From Rickettsiales bacterium (GTDB lineage: Bacteria > Pseudomonadota > Alphaproteobacteria > Rickettsiales > SXRF01), in the NCBI GenBank assembly GCA_005792635.1, contig SXRF01000068.1, positions 180 through 64,179 on the forward strand: 64,000 bases of DNA, given 5' to 3'. A program made the position numbers and the translations under genes. Below are positions 1,973-54,226 of this stretch, in pieces. Position 1 is the first letter of the stretch; every line of letters begins with the position of its first letter. The notes below the pieces were generated by a model. The model saw only the letters and a program-made list of their open reading frames with translations. It made no database searches and was not told where the DNA came from.

Positions 1973-2800
1973 ATGGCTCTCAAAAGTTTCAAACCTACAA
2001 CCCCAGCGCAACGCCAGCTAGTTTTGGTTGATCGTAGCGAGCTTTACAAAGGTAAGCCAGTTAAAAAGCTTACTGAAGGCAAAAGCAAATCTGGTGGACG
2101 CAATAACTATGGTCGCCTTACAGCATTCCGCGTGGGTGGTGGTCATAAGCAGTCTTATCGTATCATTGATTTCAAACGCCGTAAGTTTGATGTTGCGGCT
2201 ACTGTTGAACGCTTGGAGTATGATCCAAACCGCACTTCGTTTATCGCTCTTATTAAATATAGCGATGGCGAGCAGGCTTATATCATTGCGCCGCAACGCT
2301 TGGCAGTTGGCGACACGGTTATATCTTCTGAAAAAGCAGATATTAAACCGGGTAACACCATGCCGCTTAAAAATATTCCAGTGGGAACAATTGTTCACAA
2401 TGTGGAGCTAAAAGAAGGTAAGGGCGGTCAGCTTGCTCGCGCTGCTGGGGCTTATGTTCAGTTGGTTGGTAAAGATGGTGGTTACGCACAAGTAAAACTT
2501 CGTTCTGGCGAATTACGCCTTATCCGTTCAGATTGTCTGGCTACCATTGGTGCGGTTTCCAATCCGGACCATCAGAATGCAACCATTGGTAAAGCTGGTC
2601 GCAGCCGTTGGCTTGGTGTTCGCCCATCAGTTCGCGGTGTGGCGATGAACCCAGTTGACCATCCACATGGTGGTGGTGGAGGGCGCACTTCTGGTGGTCG
2701 TCATCCTGTAACACCTTGGGGTAAAGGCACAAAAGGTACAAAAACTCGTTCGAAGAAGAAGGTTAACAAGCTTATTCTTCGTAGCAGACATCAGAAATAG
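1973..2800 (+). CDS. rplB: 50S ribosomal protein L2
   Basis: 275-aa ORF with the GGGHKQSYR and [17 protein letters not shown] motifs. Confidence 0.97.
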
Positions 2801-2945
2801 TGCTAGTGGCTAGTGATTAGTGGCTAGTGATTAGTTGGGTAAAACTTTAAATTATAAGGAGGAGTGGAAAAACGGTTTGGTGAATTTGCTGGTGGTGATG
2901 AATGTTTCTTCACTGACCACTGACCACTGACCACTGACCACTAAA
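2801..2945. repeat. Heptad-periodic inverted-repeat element in the rplB-rpsS spacer
   Basis: The left arm at 2803-2837 reads CTAGTGG CTAGTGA TTAGTGG CTAGTGA TTAGTTG. The right arm at 2911-2945 reads CACTGAC x4 then CACTAAA. The arms are partly complementary through an AGTG/CACT core, and the element begins directly at the rplB stop. Confidence 0.85.
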
Positions 2946-13906: not shown

Positions 13907-13991
13907 GAGTGGCGAGTGCTAAGTAATAAGTGGTAAGATTTTCTTACTAACTTATCACTCATCACTCACCACTTACCACTAACAACTAAGG
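13907..13991. repeat. Heptad-periodic inverted-repeat element in the rpoA-rplQ spacer
   Basis: Left arm GAGTGGC GAGTGCT AAGTAAT AAGTGGT AAG, loop ATTTTC, right arm ACTTATC ACTCATC ACTCACC ACTTACC ACTAACA ACTAAGG. It starts 1 nt after the rpoA stop, and its last unit runs into the rplQ SD AAGGAGA. Confidence 0.85.
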
Positions 13992-17634: not shown

Positions 17635-17874
17635 AAAATTTCTCCATAATTTATATTTTTGTTATCGCTCCACGCTGACATTCAACAATGGAATCATTAA
17701 CAATCTTACCACCCCCCCCCGTTAATTAAAGCTTAATAAAAATTGAATTATTGGTTAATTTTTATGTAAATTCTCAGAAACAAATAAAAATTTGCAGTTT
17801 TTGCGCTTGCTAAAGGCGTAATAAATCGTTTAACTACATCGACATACTAACCACTAACCACGAGACACCAAAAA

Positions 17875-19482
17875 ATGATGACTCTTGCCCGCAATAAACG
17901 CGTAACTATCACTGAAAAACACGAGACTACCAGCAAAACAGGGGTGCATCCTAATTCTGTTATTCATGAGCTAGAGCATAAGCGCGAACGCGCAAGGCAA
18001 GGCGGCGGCGCGGTGCGGGTGGACGCTCAGCATGCAAAGGGTAAGCTTTCCTCGCGTGAGCGCATTGAGGTGTTACTAGATCCCGATTCTTTCGAAGAAT
18101 TTGACATGTTCGTTGAGCATCGCTGCACTAATTTTGATATGCAGAAAAACAAAGTTCCGGGCGATGGTTGCGTCACTGGGCATGGAACAATTAACGGTCG
18201 TATCGTGTTTATTTATAGCCAAGATTTCACCGTTCTTGGCGGCTCACTTTCGGAAACCAACGCTCAGAAAATCTGTAAAATTCTTGACATGGCGATGAAA
18301 GTTGGTGCGCCTGTGATTGGCTTGCTGGATTCTGGCGGTGCGCGGATTCAAGAAGGCGTGGATTCTCTGGGCGGCTTTGCGGAAATTTTCCAGCGCAATG
18401 TTTTGGCGTCGGGTGTTGTGCCGCAGCTATCGGTGATTATGGGACCATGCGCTGGTGGCGCGGTTTATTCGCCTGCGCTTACCGATTTTATCGTTATGGT
18501 TCGCGGCTCGTCATATATGTTCGTGACTGGGCCTGATGTAGTTAAAACCGTGACCCATGAAATCGTTAGCCAAGAAGATCTCGGCGGCGCGGACACACAC
18601 ACTCATAAAACTGGTGTTGCCGATCTGGCGTATGACAACGACATTGAGGCGTTGCTGCAAGTGCGCCGCATGTTCAATTTCTTGCCGCTTTCTAACCGCA
18701 GCGGTGTGCCTGTGCGCCCGACTTCTGACCCTGCTGACCGCGTGGAAATGTCGCTTAATACTCTTGTGCCAGACAGTCCAAACAAAGCCTATAATATGAA
18801 GGAATTGCTTGAGCGCGTGGTGGATGAGGGCGATTTTTTTGAGCTTCAGCCTGATTATGCGAAGAATATTATCATAGGTTTTGGGCGCATGGAGGGGCAT
18901 ACCGTTGGCTTTGTTGCCAACCAGCCGACGCAGCTTGCGGGTTGTCTTGATATTGACGCTTCGCGCAAAGCAGCGCGGTTTATCCGTTTTTGTGATGCTT
19001 TTTCCATTCCACTGGTTACTTTTGTTGATGTTCCGGGTTTTATGCCGGGGACGCATCAGGAGCATAACGGCGTTATTAAACATGGCGCGAAGCTATTGTT
19101 TGCTTATGCCGAGGCGACAGTGCCGAAAATCACCGTTATCACCCGCAAGGCTTATGGCGGGGCGTATGATGTGATGAGCAGCAAGCATTTGCGCGGCGAT
19201 GTGAACTATGCTTGGCCAAGCGCGGAAATCGCGGTTATGGGGCCAAAAGGTGCGGTGGAAATCATTTTCCGCGGGAAATATGCCAATGAGGAAGAGCAGC
19301 AGAAACTAATTGATGACTACCGCGAGAAATTCGCCTCGCCGTTTGTGGCGGCATCGCGCGGGTTTATTGATGATGTCATCCGCCCGCAGAACACCCGCTG
19401 GCGCATTTGTCGTTCGCTTTCCATTTTGCGGAGCAAAGATATCCAGAACCCATGGAAAAAACACGATAATTTGCCACTTTAG
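17875..19482 (+). CDS. pccB: Propionyl-CoA carboxylase beta chain (carboxyltransferase)
   Basis: 535-aa ORF with [36 protein letters not shown] and [13 protein letters not shown], which are typical acyl-CoA carboxylase CT-subunit motifs. Confidence 0.88.
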
Positions 19483-19669: not shown

Positions 19670-21190
19670 GTGACAGTTTATCGTAACAATAATCAGGATG
19701 AAAAGTCTATCTTTGCGTCAGTCGATTTTGACGACGCGAGCAACACCGCATTTTTCTTTGTAAAACATGAAGTTGATGTTGAACATGCCAAGGAATCGCT
19801 AGCGGCGGCGGGGCAGACAATAGTCGCTCAGAGCTATGTCAAAGGTCATACGGTTATTATTGCCCACGGCTCAATCCCTAAGGAAGAGTTATTCAGCAAA
19901 ATTTCCACGGCACAGGGCGATAAATTCGAGCCAGTTCCTGAGGAAAAGAAAACATTCTTGCCGTGGATAAAAGAAAATGGTTGGAAATTACGCGGTGGGT
20001 CTAGCGTTGTCGGGCAGTCGATGACGCTATATTCAGCGTTTAACACGGTTTCTGCTAAAGATGCTGCTGCTGGTAAATTAAGCCCAAAATTCGATCCCGC
20101 AACTGGCGTGTTCGCGATTTTGAACCTAACGGCTAATTTTATCAATTATATTTTTGGTGGTCAGAAAGAGGAAGATGTTAAAGGTCTAGAAAAATTTGAT
20201 GTCATCATTGCGGATGAGATAAATCGTTATTTACCAGAAAATGAGAGAAAAATCTCGCCGGATGATGTTCGCAAACTTTCTTACATGAATGATAAGGAAT
20301 TAGGAGAGCATAATAAAGACCGAAGCCCGACTGGTATTTTGAAAAGAAATTCTGTACGGCTTGGTGAGGTTGGTTTGCGGACACTTGGTTCATTGGCTTT
20401 GGTATTTAATTATCGTAAAGTAGGTGCAGGTTTTAAGGAGCTAATGAAAGGTAATGTAAAAGAAGCATTTCTGACTGCTAAAACCGAGGATAAATTCACT
20501 TTTACCGCTGGTCTTGGTATGGTGGCAGGTAAGATAATGGGGCTTACCGCGCAAACACAAGATCCAAACAACCCTCCAACCACCTATTGGGGGGAAATTC
20601 GCCAAAAAGTTCTGTGGATAACCAGTTCATTTACGGAGATGATCGCTCAGAGTTCTTTTGTGTATGACAGGGCGAAGAACAAAAAATTGATAGTTAATGG
20701 GCAGCCGCATAGTGACATGGTTGGTGCTATTGGTAACGCTATTCTTACCGTTCCACCATATCCAACTCGTTTAGTATTGCCGTATGGTAAGAAAGAACTA
20801 GACATTGACGAGGTGCAGGCGCGGTTGCTTGATGAGCTGCATAAATTGCCGCCAGATAAAATCCCTGAAGTGGCGGCGCGGGTGACGGCGCGGATGGTGG
20901 AGCATATGGGGGAATCATCACCAAGTTTCAGCGAGCTATACCGCAAATTGCTCGGGAAATTGGATAAATATCATAATATTAGCATTCTGCCGTGCGCTGA
21001 CAAATTGGGCGAGAAATCGGACAGCCAAGAACAAAGCTGGGCTGGAAATCTAGCCGCGAAATTGGCGAGCAGCGAGGCAATTCCTGATGAACCTGCTACC
21101 AAAAAATTCTCGGATAAAGCTCCGCGCAATAAAATTGAAAAAATGCCATTCATCCGCGAGGCGGATATATCTGGCGTCAGCTTGGCTTAG
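19670..21190 (+). CDS. Hypothetical protein, 506 aa
   Basis: Long ORF with a GTG start. No recognisable motifs and several weakly hydrophobic segments. Confidence 0.6.
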   Translation: MTVYRNNNQDEKSIFASVDFDDASNTAFFFVKHEVDVEHAKESLAAAGQTIVAQSYVKGHTVIIAHGSIPKEELFSKISTAQGDKFEPVPEEKKTFLPWIKENGWKLRGGSSVVGQSMTLYSAFNTVSAKDAAAGKLSPKFDPATGVFAILNLTANFINYIFGGQKEEDVKGLEKFDVIIADEINRYLPENERKISPDDVRKLSYMNDKELGEHNKDRSPTGILKRNSVRLGEVGLRTLGSLALVFNYRKVGAGFKELMKGNVKEAFLTAKTEDKFTFTAGLGMVAGKIMGLTAQTQDPNNPPTTYWGEIRQKVLWITSSFTEMIAQSSFVYDRAKNKKLIVNGQPHSDMVGAIGNAILTVPPYPTRLVLPYGKKELDIDEVQARLLDELHKLPPDKIPEVAARVTARMVEHMGESSPSFSELYRKLLGKLDKYHNISILPCADKLGEKSDSQEQSWAGNLAAKLASSEAIPDEPATKKFSDKAPRNKIEKMPFIREADISGVSLA

Positions 21191-22212: not shown

Positions 22213-22855
22213 TTGGCGTTATTTGAATAGGCATGATGGTCGGTTGTATGGCAACTGGCTCGGTTGGTTTGGTTTTTTCGGTAATCGCGCTCAAGCGTTG
22301 CAAATATCGCTCGGCAAGCTCAGCTGTACCGCGCTTCCTTGCGTCTTGCTCGGAAATATAGGTGGAAAAATATTGATTGCTCGGGTTGTTATAGCTGGTG
22401 ACGCTGCTGATTGCGCCGTTATCAATCAATTTTCCGTCGCTAATCCGCGTTAATTTATAGCCAGAATTTATGGTAAGGTTATAGCGCGATGCCGTTCCGT
22501 CCCGCGAAATGCCGATGCCTGTATTGGTTTGCGAGAGCGAAACTTCTAGGCGGTATAAAGGTGCAGTGGTTTTGGTGGAAGGAACGAGCAAATCCTCCAG
22601 ATTTTGTGAGAATTGGCGGGATATTCTATTTGCGGAATTATTGCTGGTGTCGGAACTGGAGGCAAGAACGCTGGTGGTTGAGCCACTGTCGCTTGCGACG
22701 ATGACTACCCCAGCCAGAACAGGAGAATTGGCAGGCAGCGCAGATTTTGTGCCATATACAGGCTGAAAGCCGCAGGAGGAAAAGCAGATTAGGAGTGTGG
22801 AGTATAGAGTGTAGAGTGTAAGAATCCTTATAGGAAAAAACGACTTTTTCCACAC
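22187..22855 (-). CDS. lptE: LPS-assembly lipoprotein LptE
   Basis: Located between leuS and holA. Lipobox ...LLICFSSC followed by GFQPVYG. The maximal ORF starts at the ATG at 22897 inside leuS. A GTG at 22855, with GGAG 6 nt upstream, gives a normal signal peptide (M)WKKSFFPIRILTLYTLYSTLLICFSSC. The start remains ambiguous. Confidence 0.75.
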   Translation of the reverse strand: MWKKSFFPIRILTLYTLYSTLLICFSSCGFQPVYGTKSALPANSPVLAGVVIVASDSGSTTSVLASSSDTSNNSANRISRQFSQNLEDLLVPSTKTTAPLYRLEVSLSQTNTGIGISRDGTASRYNLTINSGYKLTRISDGKLIDNGAISSVTSYNNPSNQYFSTYISEQDARKRGTAELAERYLQRLSAITEKTKPTEPVAIQPTIMPIQITPNENRPQIN

Positions 22856-22878
22856 TCCGCACTCCACACTCCACACTC
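22792..22878. repeat. Heptad-periodic inverted-repeat element spanning the lptE 5' end and the leuS 3' flank
   Basis: Left arm GGAGTGT GGAGTAT AGAGTGT AGAGTGT (22792-22819), an inner mini-hairpin GGAAAAA-ACGAC-TTTTTCC (22833-22851), and right arm CACACTC CGCACTC CACACTC CACACTC (22851-22878). Confidence 0.9.
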
Positions 22879-22880
22879 TT

Positions 22881-25445
22881 CTACGCAACCACGACATTCA
22901 CAATCCTATTCGCTACGACGATTATTTTTTTAATTTCTTTATCTTTTATAGACTCCGCAACATTCGGCAGGGCAAGGGCGGTTTTTTCCAAAATCGCTTT
23001 ATCTTCGTCTTTTTTTGCTTCAAACGCACCGCGCAATTTTCCATTTACTTGTACCGCGATATTCACCGAATCATCAATTAAAAACGCAGCATCGGCAATC
23101 GGAAACGGGCGGTTTGCCAGCTCGTCTTTATTACCCAGTTGCGCCCATAATTCTTCGGCGAGATGCGGCATAAACGGATTTATCAGATGAATTGCGGCAA
23201 TTATTGCCTCATTCCTTGCCGCTGAATTTTCCGCTGTAGGTTTGGTATCCTCAATTAGATTAGTCAGCTCACGAATTCGCGCAATGGCTTTGTTGAAATG
23301 GAATTTTTCCAGATCGTCAGTGACTGCGGCGATGGTTTTGTGGGTCTGGCGAATTAGGGCTTCGGGCTTTGGGCTTTGGGCTTCGGAAGAAATACTTGAA
23401 GCCTGAAGCCTAGAGCCTGAAGCCTCTTGAACTAACCGCCACAGCCGACCGATATACCGCCATGCACCTTCAATCCCTGCATCTGTCCATTCCAGATCGC
23501 GGTCGGGCGGGCTGTCGGAAAGCATGAACAACCGCGCCGCATCCACACCATAAGTCGCGATAATATGGCGCGGGTCAATGGTGTTTTTCTTGGACTTACT
23601 CATTTTCTCAATGCGCCCGACAGTAACAGGTTTGCCAGTTTTTATTTCTACAACCCCTAATCCAGAATTGCTAACCCCTATCTCATCAGGCGACAACCAT
23701 TTGCCTTCCGCGTTTTTATAGGTTTCGTGGGAAATCATCCCCTGCGTTTCAAGGCGTTTGAAGGGTTCTTGCAAATTCAGCAAGCCACATTTGGCGAGGG
23801 CGCGGGTGAAAAAGCGCGAATATAACAAATGCAAAACCGCGTGTTCAATGCCGCCGATATAGCAATCAACGCCGCCAGCCAGCCAATAGTTTAGCGCGGA
23901 TTTTTCCAGCGGGTCTGCGCTTGGCGTGGTTGCGTAACGCAAATAATACCATGACGACTCAAAAAATGTGTCAAATGTATCCGTTTCGCGGGTGGCTGGT
24001 TTTTCGCATTTCGGGCAGTTCACATGCTTCCATGTCGGATGATTGGCCAGCGGATTACCCGCTTTTTCAAAGCTCACATCTTTGGGTAACTCAACAGGAA
24101 GCTGCGCCTCTGGTACAGGCACTGCACCGCACGAAGCGCAATGGATAATCGGAATCGGGCAACCCCAGTAGCGTTGGCGCGAAATGCCCCAATCGCGCAG
24201 ACGATAATTGGTTTTGCCTGAGCCAATTCCGAGTTTTTCTAGCTCGGCGATGGCGCGTTTTTTTGCCTCGTCGACTGACAAGCCATTGAGAAAATCCGAG
24301 TTTATAAGTGCGTCATCATCGCCAACCACTTGCAAAATCGGCAGGTTATATTTAACTGCGAATTCGTGGTCGCGCTCGTCATGCGCTGGGCAACCAAAAA
24401 TCGCGCCAGTGCCATAATCCATCAACACGAAATTGGCGATATATAGTGGCACTTCGCGGTTTTCAAACGGATGTTTGATTTTTAATCCAGTATCAAACCC
24501 TTTTTTCTCGGCTTTTTCTATCGCTTCTTCGGATGTTCCAAGCTTATTACATTCAGCGATGAAAGCAGCGGCTTCTGGGTTATGTGCGGCTATATCTTTG
24601 GCAAGGGGATGACCAGTAGAAATCGCGCAGAAACTCATGCCGAAAAATGTATCAGGTCTTGTCGTATATATGTCTATGCTGCTCTCTATTACAGGCTTGT
24701 CAGGTTTGGCGCAAAGAACTTTGAGCGTGACAACAGCTCCCTGCGATTTTCCAATCCATTTTTCCTGCATTAGGCGGACTTTTTCTGGCCATTCTTTTAA
24801 GCCGTCTAGCCCTGCGAGTAAATCCTCGGCGAAATCAGAAATCCGCAAAAACCACTGCGATAATTTGCGGCGTTCCACCAGCGCACCGCTGCGCCAGCCG
24901 CGCCCGTCAATTACTTGCTCATTGGCAAGCACCGTGTTGTCCACAGGATCCCAGTTGACTTCCGCCTCTTTGCGATATGCTAAGCCATTTTCCAGAAATT
25001 TTAGGAAAAATTTTTGCTCGTGCTTGTAATAATCAGGAAGGCAAGTTGCCAGCTCACGCGACCAATCATAAGACAGTCCTATGAGTTTTAGTTGCTCGCG
25101 CATGGTTTCAATATTCGCCAGCGTCCATGTTTCTGGGTGCGAATTATTTTGAATCGCTGCGTTTTCCGCGGGCAAGCCGAACGCGTCCCAACCCATGGGG
25201 TGCAGGACATTAAACCCCTGCGCTCGCTTGCTTCGTGCCACTACATCGCCGAGCGTGTAATTTCGCACATGCCCCATGTGGATATTTCCAGACGGGTAGG
25301 GGAACATTTCCAGCACGAAGTATTTCGGCTTCTCGCTGTTAATGCTGGCGGCGAAGCTGTTGTTTTTTGCCCAGCGCTGTTGCCACTTGGCTTCAGTTTC
25401 GCGGAAGTTGTAGCGGGTGTTTTCTGTGGTTTTTGGTTCGGTCAT
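22881..25445 (-). CDS. leuS: Leucine--tRNA ligase
   Basis: 854-aa ORF with the HMGH motif (PYPSGNIHMGHVRNY), KMSKS and the CP1 editing domain. Confidence 0.97.
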   Translation of the reverse strand: MTEPKTTENTRYNFRETEAKWQQRWAKNNSFAASINSEKPKYFVLEMFPYPSGNIHMGHVRNYTLGDVVARSKRAQGFNVLHPMGWDAFGLPAENAAIQNNSHPETWTLANIETMREQLKLIGLSYDWSRELATCLPDYYKHEQKFFLKFLENGLAYRKEAEVNWDPVDNTVLANEQVIDGRGWRSGALVERRKLSQWFLRISDFAEDLLAGLDGLKEWPEKVRLMQEKWIGKSQGAVVTLKVLCAKPDKPVIESSIDIYTTRPDTFFGMSFCAISTGHPLAKDIAAHNPEAAAFIAECNKLGTSEEAIEKAEKKGFDTGLKIKHPFENREVPLYIANFVLMDYGTGAIFGCPAHDERDHEFAVKYNLPILQVVGDDDALINSDFLNGLSVDEAKKRAIAELEKLGIGSGKTNYRLRDWGISRQRYWGCPIPIIHCASCGAVPVPEAQLPVELPKDVSFEKAGNPLANHPTWKHVNCPKCEKPATRETDTFDTFFESSWYYLRYATTPSADPLEKSALNYWLAGGVDCYIGGIEHAVLHLLYSRFFTRALAKCGLLNLQEPFKRLETQGMISHETYKNAEGKWLSPDEIGVSNSGLGVVEIKTGKPVTVGRIEKMSKSKKNTIDPRHIIATYGVDAARLFMLSDSPPDRDLEWTDAGIEGAWRYIGRLWRLVQEASGSRLQASSISSEAQSPKPEALIRQTHKTIAAVTDDLEKFHFNKAIARIRELTNLIEDTKPTAENSAARNEAIIAAIHLINPFMPHLAEELWAQLGNKDELANRPFPIADAAFLIDDSVNIAVQVNGKLRGAFEAKKDEDKAILEKTALALPNVAESIKDKEIKKIIVVANRIVNVVVA
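23358..23425. repeat. Heptad-periodic inverted repeat inside the leuS coding sequence
   Basis: GGGCTTC GGGCTTT GGGCTTT GGGCTTC, loop, GAAGCCT GAAGCCT AGAGCCT GAAGCCT. On the minus strand it is translated as ...EASGSRLQASSISSEAQSPKPEA.... Confidence 0.9.
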
Positions 25446-25454
25446 AGCGTTGTT

Positions 25455-25520
25455 GTGTCGGTGTCGGTGCTAGTGTAGGTAAGTAAATACTACCGACACC
25501 GATCACCGACACTGACACTA
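25455..25520. repeat. Short-period (6-7 nt) inverted-repeat element between the leuS start and the upstream lipoprotein gene stop
   Basis: Left GTGTCGGTGTCGGTGCTAGTGTAGGTAAG, right TACCGACACCGATCACCGACACTGACACTA. It ends at the stop codon of the 25518-26024 gene. Confidence 0.8.
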
Positions 25521-26024
25521 TTTCCCTTGGTTAATCTTAAGTTCTCTGGCTCGTGTCAAAATAGTTTCTTCCAGCGTGCGGCTGAGTTTTGTATCAACTA
25601 TTTGGTCTTTCCACGCGCCTTTTTTATCTTTTGCTTGTTTGAAGACAGTGATTTTGATGCCGTCTGCTCGCAAGGTTTTGTCAAGGATTATCGCGTTGAT
25701 TTTGAAGCGTTCACCAACTGCTTCTGGGTCTTCATACCAGTCAGTTATAATAGTGCCACCAAAGGGATCGGCGGAGGTTAGCGGCATGAAAGACAGCGTG
25801 TCAAGCGATGCTCGCCATAGGAAACTATTCACGCCAAGCGGCGATGCACTGGCGGTCTTGTCGGTTTTTTCACCGATTACTAGCAAGCCATCATCACCCG
25901 TAACCTTGCCGCGGGCAGTTTCTCGTTCAACGCGCGGGTTTACAGCAGTGGGAGCTTCGCCTTTTATTCCAGAACAGGCGGAAATTATGAGGAGGGCAGA
26001 GATGGCAAGGAATAGTGATTTCAT
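25518..26024 (-). CDS. Lipoprotein, possibly DUF3576 family
   Basis: 168-aa ORF with signal peptide and lipobox MKSLFLAISALLIISAC. I recall that genes of this type sit next to leuS in alphaproteobacteria; this was not verified. Confidence 0.65.
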   Translation of the reverse strand: MKSLFLAISALLIISACSGIKGEAPTAVNPRVERETARGKVTGDDGLLVIGEKTDKTASASPLGVNSFLWRASLDTLSFMPLTSADPFGGTIITDWYEDPEAVGERFKINAIILDKTLRADGIKITVFKQAKDKKGAWKDQIVDTKLSRTLEETILTRARELKINQGK

Positions 26025-26055
26025 TGGTGGTTTTCTCCATTTGTGTGGCGTGTCA

Positions 26056-26132
26056 CCCCGTTTTTATAACGGGGTCTGGGGCTGCAAGTGCTGACTATAC
26101 GCTTGTTTCCAGACCCCGCAACAAGTGCGGGG
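26056..26132. repeat. Pair of CCCCG hairpins with CTGG/CCAG tails in inverted orientation
   Basis: CCCCGTT-TTTAT-AACGGGG TCTGG ... CCAGA CCCCGCA-ACAAG-TGCGGGG. The second hairpin is the reverse complement of the 17-nt core CCCGCACTTGTTGCGGG at 7912-7928. Confidence 0.8.
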
Positions 26133-26170
26133 TGGGCAAACTTATAACATAAAAAAAACATGGTGCAAGC

Positions 26171-27462: not shown

Positions 27463-27687
27463 AATCTTATCCTTATTAAAGTTAAAAAACACTGTGACTA
27501 AAACCATTTATGCCCATATACTTTTCAAGTAGATGATTGGCACTCTAGGCTACACAAGGCGCAATCACGACGCTTTATGCTTGTACCTAGGCATGTTATT
27601 ATGCAAACAAATCGCCCTTGCAAGTCGTAATGAAAATAATTGGGGTTTGAAATGGTGTTTTCCCTTCGTCTGTGGCAATATGGCAAC

Positions 27688-27738
27688 AGACAGGGGCTGT
27701 GGGCTAGGAATTGGGGATTAGGAAAGAGGAAGTATAGT
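27688..27738. repeat. Heptad-periodic G-rich tract directly upstream of the yggS start
   Basis: GGGCTGT GGGCTAG GAATTGG GGATTAG GAAAGAG GAAGTAT. It is a single arm with no clear partner arm. Confidence 0.55.
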
Positions 27739-28416
27739 ATGTTGAATATAAAAGATAAATTGCAAAAAATTGCGGATGATATAGAAAAGGCGAGGGGGGC
27801 TTCGCCCATTGCTGCGCCAGCCGTTACTATACTTGCTGCCAGTAAATCGCAGTCCGCCCTATATATAGAAGAGGCGATTGCGGCGGGCATCACCGATTTT
27901 GGCGAAAACCGCGTGCAAGAAGCGGCGGAAAAGTGGGGGCAGGGCGGCTTGCGGGAAAAATATCCGCATATAAAACTACATCTAATAGGGGCATTGCAAA
28001 CTAATAAAGTGAAGCAGGCACTAGCACTTTTTGATGTTATTCAGAGTGTGGATAGCCCAAAGTTAGCAGAGGCTTTGAGTAAGCACTACACTTCACACTC
28101 CACACTCCGCACTCGTTCTTTCTATATCCAAATCAACACTGGCGAAGAGCCGCAGAAATCAGGGATTTTTCCCGCGCAGGCGGATGAATTCATAAAATAT
28201 TGTGTGGACGAGTTGCAATTGCCAGTTGTTGGGCTGATGTGTGTCCCGCCCGCTGATCAGCCGCCCGCGCCGCATTTTGCTTTGCTGCGTGAAATCGCCA
28301 AGCGGAATAATCTGCGCGAGCTTAGCATGGGCATGAGCGGCGATTACGAAGTGGCGGTGCGGATGGGCGCGAGCTGCGTTCGTGTTGGGACGGCGTTGTT
28401 TGGTGAGCGCGCATAG
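27739..28416 (+). CDS. yggS: PLP-homeostasis protein YggS (COG0325)
   Basis: MLNIKDKLQKIADDIEKA... LAASKSQS ... GENRVQE ... HLIGALQTNKVK ... ELSMGMSGDYEVAVRMGASCVRVGTALFG. The ORF-track start at 27640 is an upstream extension. Confidence 0.88.
   Translation: MLNIKDKLQKIADDIEKARGASPIAAPAVTILAASKSQSALYIEEAIAAGITDFGENRVQEAAEKWGQGGLREKYPHIKLHLIGALQTNKVKQALALFDVIQSVDSPKLAEALSKHYTSHSTLRTRSFYIQINTGEEPQKSGIFPAQADEFIKYCVDELQLPVVGLMCVPPADQPPAPHFALLREIAKRNNLRELSMGMSGDYEVAVRMGASCVRVGTALFGERA
28084..28114. repeat. CACACTC-type heptad array inside the yggS coding sequence
   Basis: ...CACACTC CACACTC CGCACTC, sharing the 14-nt string CACACTCCGCACTC with 22851-22864. It is translated as KHYTSHSTLRTR. Confidence 0.8.
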
Positions 28417-30123: not shown

Positions 30124-30447
30124 ATGACGGCAAATAATACGGCAAAAAACATAGCTTTGCCAGAGCTGCTGAGCAGTGATGCTTTTGAGCAATTCCACGC
30201 GCTGCTCGCTGAGGAAATTTCTTCCACTGATGATATAGAATTTGATGCTTCTGGTGTTTCGCGCCTTACCACGCCTTGCGCTCAGCTTTTGGCATCGTTC
30301 TTGCAAACAAGAAATTTGCAGGTGGGAAATTCACAGGTGGGAAATTCACAAGTTGGAAAAGCACAAAAAACAGAAATAAAAAATGCCTCTGATGCGTTTC
30401 GTTCGGCGTGGAGCGATCTTGGGCTTGGAGCGCAGTTTGCCTTATAA
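30124..30447 (+). CDS. STAS-domain protein, CheS-like (first gene of the che operon)
   Basis: 107-aa ORF containing IEFDASGVSRLTTPCAQLL. Its position upstream of cheY-cheA matches cheS of Sinorhizobium meliloti. It contains an internal QVGNS repeat. Confidence 0.6.
   Translation: MTANNTAKNIALPELLSSDAFEQFHALLAEEISSTDDIEFDASGVSRLTTPCAQLLASFLQTRNLQVGNSQVGNSQVGKAQKTEIKNASDAFRSAWSDLGLGAQFAL
30319..30363 (+). repeat. 15-bp tandem repeat x3 inside the CheS-like gene
   Basis: CAGGTGGGAAATTCA CAGGTGGGAAATTCA CAAGTTGGAAAAGCA, encoding QVGNS QVGNS QVGKA. Confidence 0.95.
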
Positions 30448-30480
30448 AAGATAATTATAGATAATTGGGGAGTATAAATT

Positions 30481-30852
30481 ATGGCGAAAAAAATTCTAGC
30501 GGTTGATGATTCTAAAACCATGCGTGACATGGTTGGTTTTACACTGAAAGCCGCTGGTTTTGAAGTGGTTGATGCTGAAGACGGCAAGGACGCTTTGGAG
30601 AAATTAAAAGGCGGAAAAGTTGACGCGGTAGTGACCGATCTCAATATGCCGAATATGAATGGGTTCGAGCTTATTCGCGCTCTGCGGGCGATGGCGGAAT
30701 ATAAAATGACGCCGATTTTGATGCTCACCACCGAGGGTGACGATACCAAAAAACAAGAGGGAAAAAGTGCTGGCGCGACGGGGTGGATTGTCAAGCCGTT
30801 TAACCCTGAAAAATTGGTGCAGGTAGTAAAAAAAGTTTGCGGCGAGGCGTAA
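30481..30852 (+). CDS. cheY: Chemotaxis response regulator CheY
   Basis: 123-aa receiver domain with ILAVDDS, VVTDLNMPNMNG and KPF. Confidence 0.93.
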   Translation: MAKKILAVDDSKTMRDMVGFTLKAAGFEVVDAEDGKDALEKLKGGKVDAVVTDLNMPNMNGFELIRALRAMAEYKMTPILMLTTEGDDTKKQEGKSAGATGWIVKPFNPEKLVQVVKKVCGEA

Positions 30853-36400: not shown

Positions 36401-36476
36401 GCCTGTTCCTAAAAAGCCAGTGGTTGCCAAACCAGCTGCGAAAACAGGTACTGACCGCGAGTGGGAGGAATTCTAG
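33471..36476 (+). CDS. Methyl-accepting chemotaxis protein (2 TM, periplasmic Cache-like domain, HAMP, two PAS, MA domain, C-terminal EWEEF)
   Basis: 1001 aa. The signalling hairpin is [40 protein letters not shown]-like segments occur around [16 protein letters not shown] and [17 protein letters not shown]. The C-terminus ends ...DREWEEF. Confidence 0.93.
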
Positions 36477-36592
36477 TAGTGATGTTTGAGGACTAGAGGA
36501 TTAGAGAAATAGAGAATTCAATTCTTTTGTTTTTCTAGTCCTCTAATCCTCTAGTTTTCTAGTTCTCCAATCATCTAATAATCCAATTATCC
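36474..36592. repeat. Heptad-periodic inverted-repeat element in the mcp-cheR spacer
   Basis: TAGTAGT GATGTTT GAGGACT AGAGGAT TAGAGAA ATAGAGA ... TAGTCCT CTAATCC TCTAGTT TTCTAGT. The segment 36492-36506 (ACTAGAGGATTAGAG) is perfectly complementary to 36541-36555. Confidence 0.9.
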
Positions 36593-36594
36593 AT

Positions 36595-37416
36595 ATGCCA
36601 ACACCACAAGCAAACGACAGAGAATTTGACTTCACGCAGAGGGATTTCCAGTTTATTTCCAAGCTGGTGCATCAGCGCATCGGCATTGTGCTGAAGGAAA
36701 ATAAATTTGACATGGTTTATTCGCGGATGGCGCGGCGGTTGCGCGTGCTTAATTTGCGAAGTGTGGCTGATTATCTTGATTTCCTACAAAGTGATGCTGG
36801 CGCGGATGAAATGGGTAATATGGTGAATGCGATTACCACTAACCTCACCAGTTTTTTCCGCGAGCCACATCATTTTGAGCATCTGGCAAAACATGTATTT
36901 ACGCCATTTGCCAAGTCGGGCGAAAGCCGCCTTAGGATTTGGTCGGCGGGCTGTTCGGCTGGCGCAGAGCCATATAGCATCGCTATGACTATGATGGAGG
37001 CGATTCCTGATTTTGCCCGCAGGGATTGTAAAATACTTGCCACCGATATTGACACTAACATGGTGGAAAAAGGCAGAAACGGAATTTATGACGAAGATTG
37101 GATAGATAAAATCCCAGCCAATTTGCGCGTGAAATATGTGGAAGGCAACCAAATAGGCGCGAAAGCCAAATCTCTCATTACCTTTAAGCCGCTAAATTTG
37201 TTGGATGGTTGGCCGATGAGCGGAAAGTTTGACGCGATATTTTGCCGCAATGTGGTGATTTATTTTGACAAAGAAACGCAAGCTCCTCTGTTCTCGCGCT
37301 ATGCGGATATGCTTAAACCAAATGGATATTTATATATCGGGCATTCGGAAAATTTGAATGGCGTTTGCGATCGTTTTAAGCTGGTGGACAAAACTACATA
37401 TCAGAGGATTAAGTAG
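36595..37416 (+). CDS. cheR: Chemotaxis protein methyltransferase CheR
   Basis: 273 aa with TTNLTSFFREPHHFE, RIWSAGCSAGAEPYSIAM and FCRNVVIYFD. Confidence 0.95.
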   Translation: MPTPQANDREFDFTQRDFQFISKLVHQRIGIVLKENKFDMVYSRMARRLRVLNLRSVADYLDFLQSDAGADEMGNMVNAITTNLTSFFREPHHFEHLAKHVFTPFAKSGESRLRIWSAGCSAGAEPYSIAMTMMEAIPDFARRDCKILATDIDTNMVEKGRNGIYDEDWIDKIPANLRVKYVEGNQIGAKAKSLITFKPLNLLDGWPMSGKFDAIFCRNVVIYFDKETQAPLFSRYADMLKPNGYLYIGHSENLNGVCDRFKLVDKTTYQRIK

Positions 37417-47351: not shown

Positions 47352-49547
47352 TTACGCCATAAACTCTGGCAGCCAGCTTTCATTAGTAGCTTTTAGTTGT
47401 TCAACTGATATTTTGTCGTCGCCAATAGTCAGTTGACTGACTTGCGTTTTCCCGATTAGGTAGGCTGGCACATTTATCGCTTTTGCCGCCGCTAGAATAT
47501 CCGCGCTGTTTCTTGCAGTGATTATATAGCGAGCTTGATCTTCACCGAACCAGAACCCAGCATCACCAATCGCTGTAATATCCGCGCCAATCCCATTTCT
47601 ATAAGTCATTTCGGCGATGGCAACTAGCAGCCCACCGTCGGAAATATCATGACAAGCGGTGATTTTTCCGCCCTCAATCATTGAGCGCACAAAATCGCCA
47701 TTGGCTTTTTCCGCCTGCAAATCAACTGTTGGTGGTAAGCCTTCTTCGCGTCCCAAAATCTCGCGCAGATATAACGAAGCTCCCAGATGTTCTTTGGTTT
47801 CACCAATCAGGATAATATCCTCACCAGCCGCCAGAAAACTATTACCCACGCGCTTGTTCACATCGCGCAAAATGCCAACACCGCCGATGGCTGGGGTGGG
47901 TTGAATGGCTGTGCCGCTGGTTTCGTTATATAGCGACACATTGCCCGAAATAATCGGGTAATTGAGTGCGCGGCAAGCCTCGCCCATACCCTGCAATGCG
48001 CCAACGATTTGCCCCATTATTTCGGGTTTTTCTGGGTTGCCGAAATTCAGGCAGTTGGTGATGGCAAGCGGCGTTGCGCCCACGGCGGTTAAATTCCGCC
48101 AAGTTTCGGCAACTGCTTGCTTTCCGCCCTCCACAGGGTCGGCGTAGCAATAGCGCGGTGTGCAGTCGGTGGTTATTGCCAATGCCTTATTCGTGCCATG
48201 CACGCGCACCACCGCAGCATCCCCACCACTTCGTGCCACAGTGTCATTGCCAACTTGGCTGTCATATTGTTCGTATATCCAGCGTTTGGAGCTTAAATCT
48301 GGAGACTTGAGCAGAGTGTGGAGTGTAGAGTGTAGAGTGTGGTGAGCAGGTAATTCAACACTCGTAACGAAGCACTCTACACTCCTCTTAATTTCATACG
48401 GTCGGTCGTAAATCGGAGCATCCGTTGAAACTGGCGCGATTGGCATATCAGCGACTACTTCGCCGTGCATTTTCAGCACGATATGCCCAGTATCGGTGAT
48501 TTTACCGATGGTGGCGAATGACAACTCCCATTTCTCAAACACAGCGCGGGCGATATGTTCTTTTTCTGGCTTAATCACCATCAGCATGCGCTCCTGCGAT
48601 TCTGAAAGCATGATTTCGTAAGGTGTCATGCCCACTTCGCGCATCGGCACTTTGTCCAAATCCATCTCAATTCCCGTGCCGCCTTTACCCGCCATTTCAA
48701 GGGATGAGGAGGTTAAGCCCGCCGCGCCCATGTCCTGAATGGCAAGGATGGTGTCAGTTTGCATGAGTTCAAGGCAAGCTTCAATGAGTAATTTTTCCGT
48801 AAAAGGATCTCCAACCTGCACAGTCGGGCGTTTTTCTTCGGAGTTTTCGCCGAATTCCGCTGAAGCCATCGTCGCGCCGTGGATGCCGTCGCGCCCTGTT
48901 TTGCTGCCGACATACACCACGCTGTTGCCAACGCCCGCCGCCGCCGAATAGAAGATTTTGTCTTGGTCAGCGATGCCAACGGTCATAGCATTGACGAGGA
49001 TATTGCCGTTATATGACGAGTGAAAATTGCACTCGCCGCCAACAGTGGGAACACCAACGCAGTTGCCATAGCCGCCGATGCCCGCCACCACGCCAGAAAG
49101 CAAATGTTTGGTTTTGGGGTGCGAAGGGTCGCCAAAGCGCAGCGCGTTCATATTCGCAATCGGACGCGCGCCCATGGTGAACACATCGTGCAGAATTCCG
49201 CCAACACCTGTGGCAGCACCCTGATATGGCTCAATGTAAGATGGGTGGTTGTGCGATTCCATTTTGAAAATCGCCGCTTGCCCGTCGCCAATGTCTATCA
49301 CGCCCGCGTTTTCCCCCGGCCCGCAGATGACCCAAGGTGCGCTGGTTGGCAAGTCGCGTAAGTGTTTGCGCGTGGTTTTATAAGAGCAATGCTCGCTCCA
49401 CATAACCGAGAAAATCCCCAGCTCCACCATGTTCGGCTCACGCCCCATGATTTTCAGCACGCGGGCATATTCATCAGGCGATAAGCCATGTTCAGCCACG
49501 ATTTGCGGGGTTATTTTTGATTCTATTCTTTGTGCAGCTTGGTTCAT
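47352..49547 (-). CDS. purL: Phosphoribosylformylglycinamidine synthase subunit PurL
   Basis: [21 protein letters not shown] and DCLNFGNPE-like motifs. The ATG at 49547 ([22 protein letters not shown]) is preferred over the TTG at 49598 used by the ORF track. Confidence 0.95.
48314..48386. repeat. GAGTGT-type heptad inverted repeat inside the purL coding sequence
   Basis: GAGTGTG GAGTGTA GAGTGTA GAGTGTG (48314-48341), a loop, then CACTCTA CACTCCT (48373-48386). On the minus strand it is translated as ...[17 protein letters not shown].... Confidence 0.88.
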
Positions 49548-49575
49548 AAAATTGATTACTTTTTGATGGTGTTTT

Positions 49576-50334
49576 CTAGCTTCTTTTAATAGGTTCAATC
49601 TGTTTTTGTATGTTTTTTATGTATTCATCAATTTTAAACTCCATTTTTGTACACATTTTTATCAATTCCTGCATTTTTAGGTCAATATAACTACCTTCAT
49701 ACTGTTCTGGGAGGAGATAGTCATTAACTTTATCTACGCTATAGGTAGGCAACAATTTATTAAACTCTTGTTCATATTCTTCAAAAGAAAAAGATTTATT
49801 GTTTTGTACCCACTCATTCATATCGTTGAATATGTTTATATTAGCATTTTCAGCGTATTCTTCATATTTATTATCCAATCCTTGTTCTATTAATCTATTT
49901 TTTTCATCTCTTATAACATTCCAATTTTTCTGTATACCATCAGATAATTTTTGAAAACCGTCTTTAAATTGAGCGATACCTGATATTATTCCATTACGCA
50001 AATCAGACAAATTTTCACCAGTAACTCTATCTGTATAAAGGTAAGAACTTAAAAGATTTCTGAGCCCTGACAGCATATTTATGTAAAAACTCTCATCTGA
50101 AGATGTATTACTATTATCCTTTAATCCTTTGATTATATAACCATACTCACCAACAGAACAGTATAAAGGCGAGTTTTGTAATGAAGGATTTTTAGTTCCG
50201 ATCTTGTGATACAAAATATCGTTTATTATTCCCTTTTTATCTTCCGTAGCTATTGAAAGAATAATAGCATCTATGTCTTTACATATGCTGTCAGGAGTGA
50301 TTTCTGCTTGTGACTTCTGTGCGGCGGTATTCAT
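49576..50334 (-). CDS. Hypothetical protein, strongly AT-rich orphan directly upstream of purL
   Basis: 252-aa ORF, Asn/Ile/Lys/Glu-rich. Sampled 60-nt lines give about 32-37% G+C, against about 53% for a purL line. No family recognised. Confidence 0.6.
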
Positions 50335-53063: not shown

Positions 53064-54071
53064 ATGCAAAATTTTGCAACGGATGTAGTGGTGATTGGGG
53101 CTGGGCCTGCTGGGTTGTTCTCGGTTTTTGAGCTGGGAATGCTTAAATTAAAAGCGCATGTGGTGGACGCTCTCGATGCGCTTGGCGGTCAGTGTAGTGC
53201 GCTGTATCCTGAAAAACCGATTTACGATATACCCGCGCATCCGAGCATCCTCGCGCAGGATTTGGTGGATAAACTTGCCGCGCAAGCTGCGCCATTTACG
53301 CCGACTTATCACCTTGGGCAGCGGGTAGAAAAGCTAGTAAAAACCGACTCTGGCTGGCAGGTTATTACCTCAAAAAATCTGCAAATAGCTTGCAAAGCCA
53401 TCATCATTGCCGCTGGTTGCGGTGCATTTGGGCCAAACCGCCCGCCGATGGAAAATCTGGAGCAGTTTGAAGGCAAAAGCGTGTTTTATTTCGTGAATAA
53501 ACGCGAGGATTTTCGTGGGAAAAAAGTAGTAATCGCTGGTGGTGGCGACTCGGCGGTGGACTGGGCTATTTCGCTTTCGGAACTTGCGGAAAAAATCTTC
53601 GTGGTGCATCGTCGTCCGAAATTCCGCTGCGCTCCTGAATCCGCCGCCAAGCTGCAAGAACTGGCGGATAGCGGCAAGATTGAGCTAGTGATACCATACC
53701 AGCTTGACGGTCTTGAAGGTGAAAATGGCTCACTGAAAAATGTGATTGTCAGTACTCTGGAGGGTGAAAAACGCGCTCTGCCTGCGGATGTTTTGCTGCC
53801 ATTTTTCGGGCTGTCTATGGAGCTGGGTGAAATCGCAAATTGGGGATTAAATCTGGAGAGCAACCATATAACTGTGAACCAAACCACGATGGCGACGAAT
53901 GTTGCGGGAATTTTTGCCATTGGCGACATTGCGACATACTCTGGCAAGTTGAAGCTCATCCTTTCTGGCTTTGCCGAAGCGGCGACCGCGGCGCACAGCG
54001 CACATAAAATCTGCCGACCTGATGAGGTGTTGCATTTTGAATATTCAACCACTAGCGGAGTGCCGAAGTGA
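53064..54071 (+). CDS. Ferredoxin--NADP(+) reductase, thioredoxin-reductase-like type
   Basis: VVVIGAGPAGL, GGQCSALYPEKPIYDIP and GGGDSAVDWA, with no CxxC redox pair. ATG at 53064 after AAGGA. Confidence 0.8.
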   Translation: MQNFATDVVVIGAGPAGLFSVFELGMLKLKAHVVDALDALGGQCSALYPEKPIYDIPAHPSILAQDLVDKLAAQAAPFTPTYHLGQRVEKLVKTDSGWQVITSKNLQIACKAIIIAAGCGAFGPNRPPMENLEQFEGKSVFYFVNKREDFRGKKVVIAGGGDSAVDWAISLSELAEKIFVVHRRPKFRCAPESAAKLQELADSGKIELVIPYQLDGLEGENGSLKNVIVSTLEGEKRALPADVLLPFFGLSMELGEIANWGLNLESNHITVNQTTMATNVAGIFAIGDIATYSGKLKLILSGFAEAATAAHSAHKICRPDEVLHFEYSTTSGVPK

Positions 54072-54087: not shown

Positions 54088-54183
54088 CTGTCGTCATTCC
54101 GCCGAAGGGCGGAATCCATGCCTAACCGCAAGTGTATCGCTAGTTGTTTGGCATGGATACCAGCCTTCGCTGGTATGACAAGG
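54088..54183 (+). repeat. GTCAT...ATGAC multi-hairpin element, copy 2
   Basis: CTGTCGTCAT TCCGCC-GAAG-GGCGGAAT CCATGCC ...variable... GGCATGG ATACCAGC-CTTC-GCTGGTAT GACAAG. It matches the reverse complement of 28441-28533, with compensatory stem changes. Confidence 0.85.
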
Positions 54184-54226
54184 CGAGAGGTTGATGGAAA
54201 ACACATTTGTATATTATGGAGAAGTG

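Follow-up and report, generated by a model that had tools for sequence, protein, structure and literature searches.

A heptad-repeat hairpin translated within leuS of a Rickettsiales bacterium, best described as belonging to a class of paired, convergent heptanucleotide arrays found across the lineage

Palindromic elements of Rickettsia (RPEs) and the heptamer repeats of Xanthomonas and Nostoc are the described systems closest to the heptad-repeat hairpin analysed here, which lies within the leucyl-tRNA synthetase gene (leuS) in a 64-kb stretch of the Rickettsiales bacterium contig SXRF01000068.1. This whole stretch is called the window in the following, and the hairpin is called the leuS element. 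RPEs are about 150 bp long, belong to ten families, each with a conserved peptide, and occur in-frame in housekeeping genes (Ogata et al. 2000, 2002, as summarised in PMC10969869). The GGGAATC and GGGGA(C/T)T heptamers of Xanthomonas and Nostoc prefer arrays of four units, form 70-75 convergent inverted pairs and are capable of forming stem-loops (Rehm et al. 2015, PMC4692102). Coding strands are depleted in their G-rich strand, repeats at the same genes are not shared between related species, and for these four-unit G-rich heptamers quadruplex formation has been shown in vitro (PMC4692102). We consider the leuS element to be best described as a translated copy from a class of such arrays, heptanucleotide-based, paired and convergent, that extends over its whole lineage.

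Direct repeats of the heptamer TAACTGA have been reported from marine Beggiatoaceae, cyanobacteria and Bacteroidetes (MacGregor 2015, PMC4679880), and a minority of them is translated at protein termini (PMC4679880). In many bacteria, heptanucleotide repeats are the most over-represented long simple repeats (Mrazek 2007, as reported by a citing paper). For hairpin stems of rRNA and microRNA, an intrastrand template switch has been described as correcting a base pair to its 5' base, from which an asymmetry of pairs was derived (Monttinen and Loytynoja 2022, PMC8794818), and inversion of the loop is a further outcome of template switching (PMC8794818). Heptanucleotide repeats have so far been treated as intergenic, and their origin, their preference for four units and their convergent pairing have remained unexplained. 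Full-text searches that joined heptamer repeats with hairpins, with in-frame insertion or with these taxa yielded no paper on translated heptad palindromes.

The leuS element covers 69 nt (23357-23425 of the window) in a gene encoded on the minus strand. The gene and the parts of the element are as follows.

22881-25445, minus strand: leuS, leucyl-tRNA synthetase, 854 aa; among solved relatives, N. gonorrhoeae LeuS matches best (E = 4e-257)
23357-23386, plus strand: 5' arm, GGGCTTC GGGCTTT GGGCTTT GGGCTTC GG (Tandem Repeats Finder (TRF), RNA fold, codon map)
23387-23395, plus strand: unpaired tip AAGAAATAC (RNA fold)
23396-23425, plus strand: 3' arm, TT GAAGCCT GAAGCCT AGAGCCT GAAGCCT (TRF, inverted repeat I1)

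TRF reports two period-7 arrays with 4.3 and 4.1 copies. On the + strand these are the four complete heptads of the 5' arm (4 x GGGCTTY) on the left and the four complete heptads of the 3' arm on the right, separated by a 13-nt spacer, GGAAGAAATACTT. The repeat finder recognised inverted arms of 27 nt (inverted repeat I1) with a complementarity of 81%, so that the element is an imperfect Watson-Crick palindrome. A first-pass annotation of the window had placed the hairpin at 23358-23425 and had called it perfect-looking. The hairpin is real and begins one base further left, while the perfect look is not borne out by the 81% complementarity. All six mismatches in the 27 nt scored for the left array are transitions, which give G.T or G.U pairs on the + strand, and therefore the + strand as RNA forms an unbroken 30-bp stem (23357-23386 with 23396-23425) with a 9-nt tip. 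This stem has a folding energy of -52.6 kcal/mol (z = -9.6), which is equalled by none of 200 shuffles. RNA of the leuS sense strand folds with only -35.7 kcal/mol, because the G.U positions become A.C there, and with DNA folding parameters the + strand still ranks above the leuS sense strand.

The 5' arm consists of four G3N4 units on the non-coding strand of leuS and has a G fraction of 0.43, compared to 0.29 in the 3' arm. While this arm fits G3N4 x4, it reads GGGCTTY and not GGGNATC, and its partner has no G3 tracts. The tip is A-rich on the + strand and thus oriented opposite to the GAAGAAAAA (EEK) loops that related hairpins have in other genomes. The sequences that flank the element, GCGAATTA and CTTGAACT (AATTA / CTTGA), share no common direct repeat, and neither a target-site duplication nor a terminal motif was found in them. 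The element is an inverted repeat over its whole length and lacks the terminal repeats derived from an insertion sequence (IS) and the target-site duplication that characterise MITEs (transposable elements of miniature size with inverted repeats). It also differs from repetitive extragenic palindromes (REPs and REPINs), which have 20-40 nt and are associated with a RAYT transposase, in being intragenic and in having no GTAG or CGTC head at either end. A comparison to Rfam 15 returned only generic microRNA-precursor models, with 17-33 bits against thresholds of 53-160, and no promoter-like or intrinsic-terminator-like signal was found near the hairpin.

The element spans leuS codons 674 (2 nt) to 697 (1 nt), and both arms are translated in the leuS frame without a stop. 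The encoded peptide, ASGSRLQASSISSEAQSPKPEA, represents LeuS residues 675-696 and is located between RLWRLVQE and LIRQTHKTIAAVTDD. The complement of the 5' arm encodes ...SEAQSPKPEA and that of the 3' arm (E)ASGSRLQAS, and each half of the peptide translates the reverse complement of the other. Apart from the leuS frame, one other minus-strand frame is open through the element, and stops occur in all three + frames; the TAG within the element falls in minus-strand frame 1. Translation of both arms, the peptide with its two flanks, and avoidance of the TAG by the leuS frame had all been claimed in the first-pass annotation and are confirmed.

Across 75 alphaproteobacterial LeuS sequences, conserved flanks (W[RK]L.. 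/ ..HKTIAAVTDD) enclose a hypervariable linker. E. coli LeuS (3zgz/4aq7) aligns across this linker with one gap of a single residue. An AlphaFold2 model (mean pLDDT, the predicted local distance difference test score, of 74) has a helix at 658-681, a coil at 682-693 and a helix at 694-713, with pLDDT below 50 at 680-691. According to this model, the element encodes two helix ends and a predicted disordered connector in the anticodon-binding helical domain of LeuS. From flank to flank, the DNA measures 90-93 nt in the six genomes that have a hairpin here, and 84-93 nt, in most cases 90, in the hairpin-free genomes listed. As judged from these alignments, the LeuS linker has undergone no net length change, neither relative to E. 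coli LeuS (1 residue) nor relative to relatives without the arrays. The earlier view that the element occupies a non-conserved, variable loop without obvious length change is thus well founded, and the statement made with it, that E. coli LeuS has a linker of similar length, was right, given the single 1-residue gap.

Period-7 arrays proved to be abundant in the window and beyond. There are eight in the window, where shuffles contain 0-2, and periods 6 and 8 yield two each. When the window is taken together with related loci (812 kb), 50 period-7 arrays stand against 0-6 for periods 5, 6 and 8-11. The array lengths peak near 27 nt, which corresponds to about four units. The relatives are metagenome-assembled genomes (MAGs) labelled Rickettsiales, Alphaproteobacteria or Pseudomonadota. 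For a census at the protein level, we counted 9-residue stretches that a pure 7-nt repeat can encode when no more than one mismatch is allowed. In LeuS this revealed 82 heptad-coded segments in 46 of 122 relatives, with none in shuffles, none for periods 4 and 5, and a level of noise for period 8. The segments concentrate at residues ~236-248, ~273-292, ~366-405, ~595-630, ~675-720 (the site of the leuS element) and ~728-760. In PurL, 38 segments were found in 36 of 120 relatives (none in shuffles), nearly all of them in the linker that carries a hairpin in the window, and many heptads are used. Among the top 60 PurL relatives that were aligned, many have palindrome-coded peptides, with linker lengths of 51-59 compared to 48-50 in array-free sequences.

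The 119 segments from LeuS and PurL use 69 canonical heptads, which grade into one another. Heptad families were tallied by exact canonical counts; single-linkage clustering at one mismatch chained nearly all heptads together and was uninformative. GGGATTC, which is one substitution away from the GGGCTTC of the window, occurs in 12 segments, which are spread over several sites in LeuS and two in PurL. Most heptads of the class have no G tracts (e.g. GAGTGTA, CAGTTGT). We had considered quadruplex formation as a general cause of the preference for four units and rejected it for this reason.

Further translated heptad hairpins or arrays occur in the window in purL, in yggS and in the signal peptide of LptE, and copies of the same architecture are also found between genes.

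22793-22878, minus strand: second heptad hairpin, GAGTGTR x4, 32-nt spacer, ACACTCC x4, translated in the LptE signal peptide (MSWLRRRVWSVECGVWKKSFFPIRILTLYTLYSTLLICFSSC)
48313-48385, minus strand: third heptad hairpin, GAGTGTR x4 and decayed ACACTCY units, in frame in the inter-domain linker of purL (47352-49598)
28044-28114, plus strand: ACACTCC x4 array (28088-28114) in the variable loop of a yggS-family gene (27640-28416)
2798-2942, plus strand: intergenic hairpin between rplB and rpsS, TAGTGGC/TAGTGAT x5, 75-nt spacer, CACTGAC x4.6 (TRF, fold)
13954-13989, plus strand: one-armed A/C-rich array, ATCACTC-like x5, abutting the rplQ ribosome-binding site on its upstream side

The start ATG of lptE (22897) overlaps the end of leuS, within its last codons. 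At the lptE site, L083 has a plain lipoprotein signal peptide without a hairpin, and L081, L084 and L086 have different heptads. The purL hairpin is translated as a 24-residue peptide, and PurL relatives at 85-88% identity already differ at this inter-domain linker. In yggS the array is complementary to the native codons CAGAGTGTGGAT (QSVD, 28044-28055). Relatives read QTLD at this position, and it is therefore with QSVD that the sequence pairs with the ACACTCC array downstream. In other genomes the YggS loop carries GAATCCC x4 (L002, L011), GAAGCCT x4 (L006), GAATCCT x3.5 (L082) or a period-8 hairpin of ~25 residues (L086). In the spacer of the rplB/rpsS hairpin, an AAGGAGG is followed by a GTG-started open reading frame (ORF) of 19 codons, VEKRFGEFAGGDECFFTDH and a stop, which reaches into the 3' array. 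This array stops 8 nt before the rpsS ATG, and no obvious ribosome-binding site is seen there. A one-armed ACTAACC x2.3 array (17846-17861) lies directly upstream of the gene starting at 17875.

The closest relative for which DNA was compared, L081 (P0002), has an 83% identical LeuS and carries the same hairpin at the identical site. The leuS element is no recent insertion and predates the split from the lineage with the 83%-identical LeuS. The window and L081 agree in 92% of nucleotides within the element and in 77% elsewhere, the LeuS-loop peptide is 91% identical, and synonymous differences start right outside the element. Four-fold sites are identical at 12 of 13 positions in the element, compared to 119 of 291 (41%) in the rest of the gene (Fisher p = 0.00025). 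Excess synonymous conservation was not reproduced for the CAGTTGT-type pairs (L082, L086, L084) or for the arrays of L083 and L085. P0018 (76%) encodes the same element, as seen in its protein sequence. The first-pass annotation had named one finding that would refute its reading, namely a peptide and DNA conserved across relatives that lack other heptad elements; peptide and DNA are kept in L081/P0002 and the peptide in P0018, yet these relatives do carry other heptad elements.

Beyond these relatives the linker is filled in various ways. Only the half corresponding to ...ESQSPNPESL is retained in P0005, P0007, P0017, P0019 and P0025, and in L083 and L085 the half element is a one-armed CCGAATC array. 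CAGTTGT x4, AAGAAAAAAATA and ACAACTG x4 fill the linker in L082, L086 and L084, while the linker hairpins of L004 and L012 consist of GTTAGTC / CTAACGA and GCGGATA / AACCGCT, respectively. At the linker, 8 of 81 loci (including two from near-identical contigs) show a complementarity of their own arms above the 99th percentile for pairings across genomes, and the hairpin is therefore sporadic and not a conserved feature of leuS. At the orthologous positions just past the leuS stop and in the YggS loop, heptads vary by genome as well. Thus, in the genomes compared, the same sites hold different heptads, one-armed remnants or nothing, which speaks for turnover and not for a fixed function.

Several footprints bear on how the arms were written. 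In seven genomes, complementary arms that are ~100 nt apart, with a different heptad in each genome, flank the conserved LeuS core YTTRPDT...HPL.

L018 3738-3886, L025 3561-3713, L084 10724-10865, L086 10726-10861; also L003, L012, L048: bracketing arms, in two variable LeuS segments

In most of the seven genomes the length equals that of array-free orthologues. Scores of own arms at the bracket site are 14-30, compared to a cross-genome 99th percentile of 13.9, and a significant hairpin is present in 8 of 67 loci. As the arms flank ~100 nt of conserved native coding sequence, they cannot be the product of one simple insertion. At LeuS site ~600, L086 shows a net gain of 17 residues. Near this residue, AAATA...TATTT pairing occurs between the native GAAATA and a TATTT past the 3' arm, so that the palindrome extends into the flank.

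The 5' arm is G/T-rich and the 3' arm A/C-rich in 25 of 26 hairpins (binomial p = 8e-7). Pairs counted as 5' base-3' base are G-C in 226 cases and C-G in 77, T-A in 154 and A-T in 80. Since repeat units and some of the sites are not independent, the sign test per hairpin is the one to be trusted. Polarity and pair asymmetry fit intrastrand template switching that corrects to the 5' base. In the window it is the antisense strand that carries the A-rich loop motif AAGAAATACT, whereas CAGTTGT-type hairpins and L083 have it on the sense strand (EEK), and such a loop inversion is among the outcomes described for template switching (PMC8794818). Compensatory changes affect multiple units, e.g. CAGTTGT/ACAACTG in L082 compared to CAGCGAC/ACCGCTG in L084, and they lend modest support to template switching. 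Thus, length neutrality, polarity and pair asymmetry, palindromes that extend into native flanks and the inverted loop are all in line with hairpins generated by template switching.

All 8-kb blocks of the 64-kb window have a positive GC skew on the + strand, even those in which minus-strand genes predominate. This makes the + strand the probable leading strand and leuS, lptE and purL probable lagging-strand genes. Among 14 coding hairpins, the antisense strand folds better in eight and the sense strand in three, which is not significant. The asymmetry between G.T pairs on the + strand and A.C on the sense strand fits a C-to-T bias of the leading strand, selection against an mRNA hairpin, or selection for hydrophilic A/C-rich codons, and could not be assigned to one of these.

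We propose that tandem heptad units would arise and homogenise by replication slippage, and that the second arm would be written, and later re-corrected, by intrastrand template switching. In the switch, existing sequence would be overwritten with the first arm's reverse complement, often in a length-neutral manner. Selection would act as a filter only, in that copies within genes survive when their peptide is harmless (in disordered linkers and signal peptides), when their total length keeps the frame and when their units are free of stops in the frame used. The form typical of the class has ~4 heptad units per arm, the 5' arm being G/T-rich and the 3' arm A/C-rich, and in many cases an A-rich loop. 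We favour this explanation of the leuS element, a paired convergent heptanucleotide array from slippage and template switching that is tolerated in permissive spots, and give it about an even chance of being correct. The anatomy, translation in frame, position in a loop, abundance across the lineage, polarity, length neutrality and turnover are observed, whereas we infer both this origin and the lack of a function for LeuS. If selection only filters permissive copies, the LeuS peptide would be a by-product of the DNA, replacing a native helix-loop-helix connector of ~22 residues in the anticodon-binding domain. The permissive sites are the LeuS linker, the PurL inter-domain linker, the YggS loop and the LptE signal peptide.

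Translated copies in leuS, purL, yggS and lptE across the lineage make the origin of heptamer pairs testable. The coding context provides conserved flanks, orthology and a frame constraint, and therefore gains, losses, replacements and arm corrections can be dated base by base. The G/T-rich 5' polarity links the heptad elements to intrastrand template switching. If the proposed origin is true, the lineage is a natural experiment in which replication errors create long perfect stems and new protein linkers. For annotation, translated heptad copies account for puzzling low-complexity inserts and for length variation in conserved proteins from MAGs.

Several points weigh against slippage and template switching with mere tolerance. 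The excess conservation of four-fold sites between the window and L081 is unexpected for a purely neutral by-product and points to a constraint at the sequence level or to renewed copying from another place. Some heptads are found again at sites that are not homologous, as GGGATTC is in LeuS and PurL, and L086 has a GGCTTAA-type hairpin with the loop GGAAGAAAAACTT at a different LeuS site, in an orientation opposite to that of the window; such recurrence at unrelated loci fits copying between loci, i.e. mobility. The peak at four units is not explained by slippage alone. The polarity test takes in some orthologous hairpins which are not independent, and in the covariation analysis, where five pairs are altered on both sides among three sequences, this count is reached by 32 of 500 shuffles.

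Some of these points would be accounted for by a non-autonomous mobile element of the MITE, REP or RPE kind, mobilised in trans and inserting as a ready-made hairpin, with its family consensus kept by the mobilising enzyme. Identical heptads at unrelated sites in LeuS, PurL and YggS are in line with this, as are the L086 hairpin (GGCTTNN with a GGAAGAAAWACTT loop) in reversed orientation, the real net insertion at LeuS site ~600, the GAAGAAAAA loops shared by hairpins with unlike arms, and the leuS hairpin nucleotides that are kept between the window and L081 while flanking synonymous sites diverge. However, the leuS copy has neither a target-site duplication nor a terminal motif, most copies replace sequence in a length-neutral manner, and arms that bracket ~100 nt of native conserved coding sequence are incompatible with one insertion. 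Instead of a few discrete families, the 119 segments show a gradation of 69 canonical heptads. An exact scan of metagenome contigs for GGCTT N1-2 GGAAGAAAWACTT N0-1 AAGCC returned a single L086-like contig, which is an independent assembly of the L086 organism and therefore adds no evidence of dispersal, and no mobilising gene was found among the six window ORFs that were screened. We regard such a mobile element as a tentative possibility that falls well short of the preferred origin by slippage and template switching.

It is also conceivable, although we consider it doubtful, that the heptad hairpins are a hitherto unrecognised type of self-propagating DNA, palindromes of ~70 nt with 4+4 units that spread from locus to locus and rewrite permissive stretches of essential genes, keeping the frame and often the length, without a transposase, terminal repeats or target duplications. 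If this were true, either the process of copying or a dedicated factor would keep their sequence constant, and this would account for the synonymous conservation and the recurrence of heptads such as GGGATTC at unrelated sites. They would then correspond, in protein-coding sequence, to the heptamer pairs of Xanthomonas and Nostoc and would act as a general source of varied linkers in an uncultured lineage of alphaproteobacteria.

We judge it unlikely that the element is a selected nucleic-acid structure which regulates leuS or local replication or transcription, be it as an RNA hairpin (antisense, or for mRNA processing or stability), as a cruciform or as a G-quadruplex. The 30-bp stem of the + strand with its G.U pairs and extreme z-score, the over-conserved four-fold sites and the compensatory changes in orthologous hairpins would suit such a function, and by analogy the same may hold for an arm that fits G3N4 x4 with the G-rich strand being the non-coding one, as in PMC4692102. 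However, the hairpins are sporadic at both the linker and the bracket site, genomes differ in heptads and sites or have none, and pairing is degraded on the leuS sense strand. In addition, nothing resembling a promoter or terminator lies near the hairpin, no Rfam family scores above its threshold, most heptads of the class are without G tracts, and the CAGTTGT-type pairs show no excess conservation.

Selection of the peptide itself as a flexible low-complexity linker, with the palindrome being incidental, is very improbable. Its identity of 91% between the window and L081 and its hydrophilic composition rich in Ser, Pro and Glu, suited to a surface loop, agree with it, but synonymous positions are kept too (12 of 13), the two halves are reverse-complement translations of each other, unrelated peptides fill the same loop in other relatives, and intergenic copies have the same DNA architecture. 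A chance low-complexity match or an assembly artefact, for which nothing speaks except that the source genomes are metagenome assemblies, can practically be dismissed in view of z-scores between -7 and -10 for the folds, unmatched by any of 200 shuffles, the specificity for period 7, the intact frame of an essential gene and the same hairpins in independent assemblies (window and L081; L086 and L087, from different samples).

A few other repeats in the window were noted in passing. A hairpin of 8-nt units at 36488-36579 (TAGAGAAT-like versus TCTAATCC-like, -38.4 kcal/mol on the + strand) is located between genes ending at 36476 and starting at 36595. The composite inverted repeat at 54093-54179, which is not heptad-based, has 34-nt arms that are each a small hairpin (-54.8 kcal/mol) and lies between genes ending at 54071 and starting at 54191. 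Directly upstream of a DUF3576 gene (25518-26024, minus strand) there is a nested inverted repeat, CACCCCG...CGGGGTG around CCAGACCCC... (26054-26134, -47.9 kcal/mol). A 15-nt tandem repeat, GAAATTCACAGGTGG x3.3 (30311-30366), overlaps the 3' part of the ORF at 30282-30794 (minus strand). Beside holA, an ORF of 506 aa (19670-21190) has no Pfam match at E <= 0.001.

When the leuS element is compared to RPEs, the analogy drawn in the first-pass annotation holds for behaviour and fails for size, unit structure and length-neutral replacement. In both cases a palindrome is tolerated in frame in unrelated alphaproteobacterial housekeeping genes, both halves are translated, and the positions are compatible with the fold. 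In contrast, RPEs of ~150 bp add residues, whereas the leuS element has 69 nt and is a length-neutral replacement of a loop. It is built from 7-nt tandem units out of a continuum of 69 canonical heptads, a distinction drawn from the published descriptions of RPEs; in the account given in PMC10969869, an architecture of heptad units is not among the described features of RPEs.

With the Xanthomonas/Nostoc heptamers the leuS element shares tandem 7-nt units with a preference for about four, the convergent pair with the G-rich array 5' on each strand, and an arm that reads G3N4 x4. Those repeats differ in that each genome has one motif, which is mostly intergenic (in Xanthomonas, 7-11% are even partly intragenic) and was not reported in the form of translated palindromes (PMC4692102). 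The lineage analysed here has many coexisting heptads, most of them without G tracts, with a large share in frame in essential genes. Instead of being confined to intergenic positions, the leuS copy and at least three other copies in the window are translated.

The TAACTGA repeats have their likeness in the short A/C-rich arrays a few nt upstream of start codons, including those of ribosomal-protein operons (compare 2911-2942, 13954-13989 and 17846-17861 in the window). They differ in being nearly all direct (with one inverted case), in being dominated by a single heptamer that has stops in every forward frame, and in being tolerated at protein ends only. Among cyanobacteria, Vioque (1997) reportedly found heptanucleotide repeats of the short tandemly repeated repetitive (STRR) type inside the RNase P RNA gene, and Elhai et al. 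(2008) are said to have found small dispersed repeats embedded in heptamer arrays. These repeats also comprise several dispersed heptamer types and can occupy a variable, structure-tolerant position in a functional gene, while they belong to another phylum and their known intragenic case is a helix of an RNA gene and not a translated protein loop.

Hairpins attributed to template switching resemble the class in their overwriting reverse-complement copies, multi-base compensation, loop inversion and enrichment of 5'-G/3'-C and 5'-U/3'-A pairs (PMC8794818; also PMC10710096). They have been described in stems of rRNA and microRNA, and not with tandem-heptad arms or in protein-coding sequence. In summary, the leuS element is like the heptamer pairs in its unit architecture and like the RPEs in its in-frame tolerance, and it is a member of neither class, because it lies within a gene and has a motif other than GGGNATC, and because it is not ~150 bp long and adds no residues.

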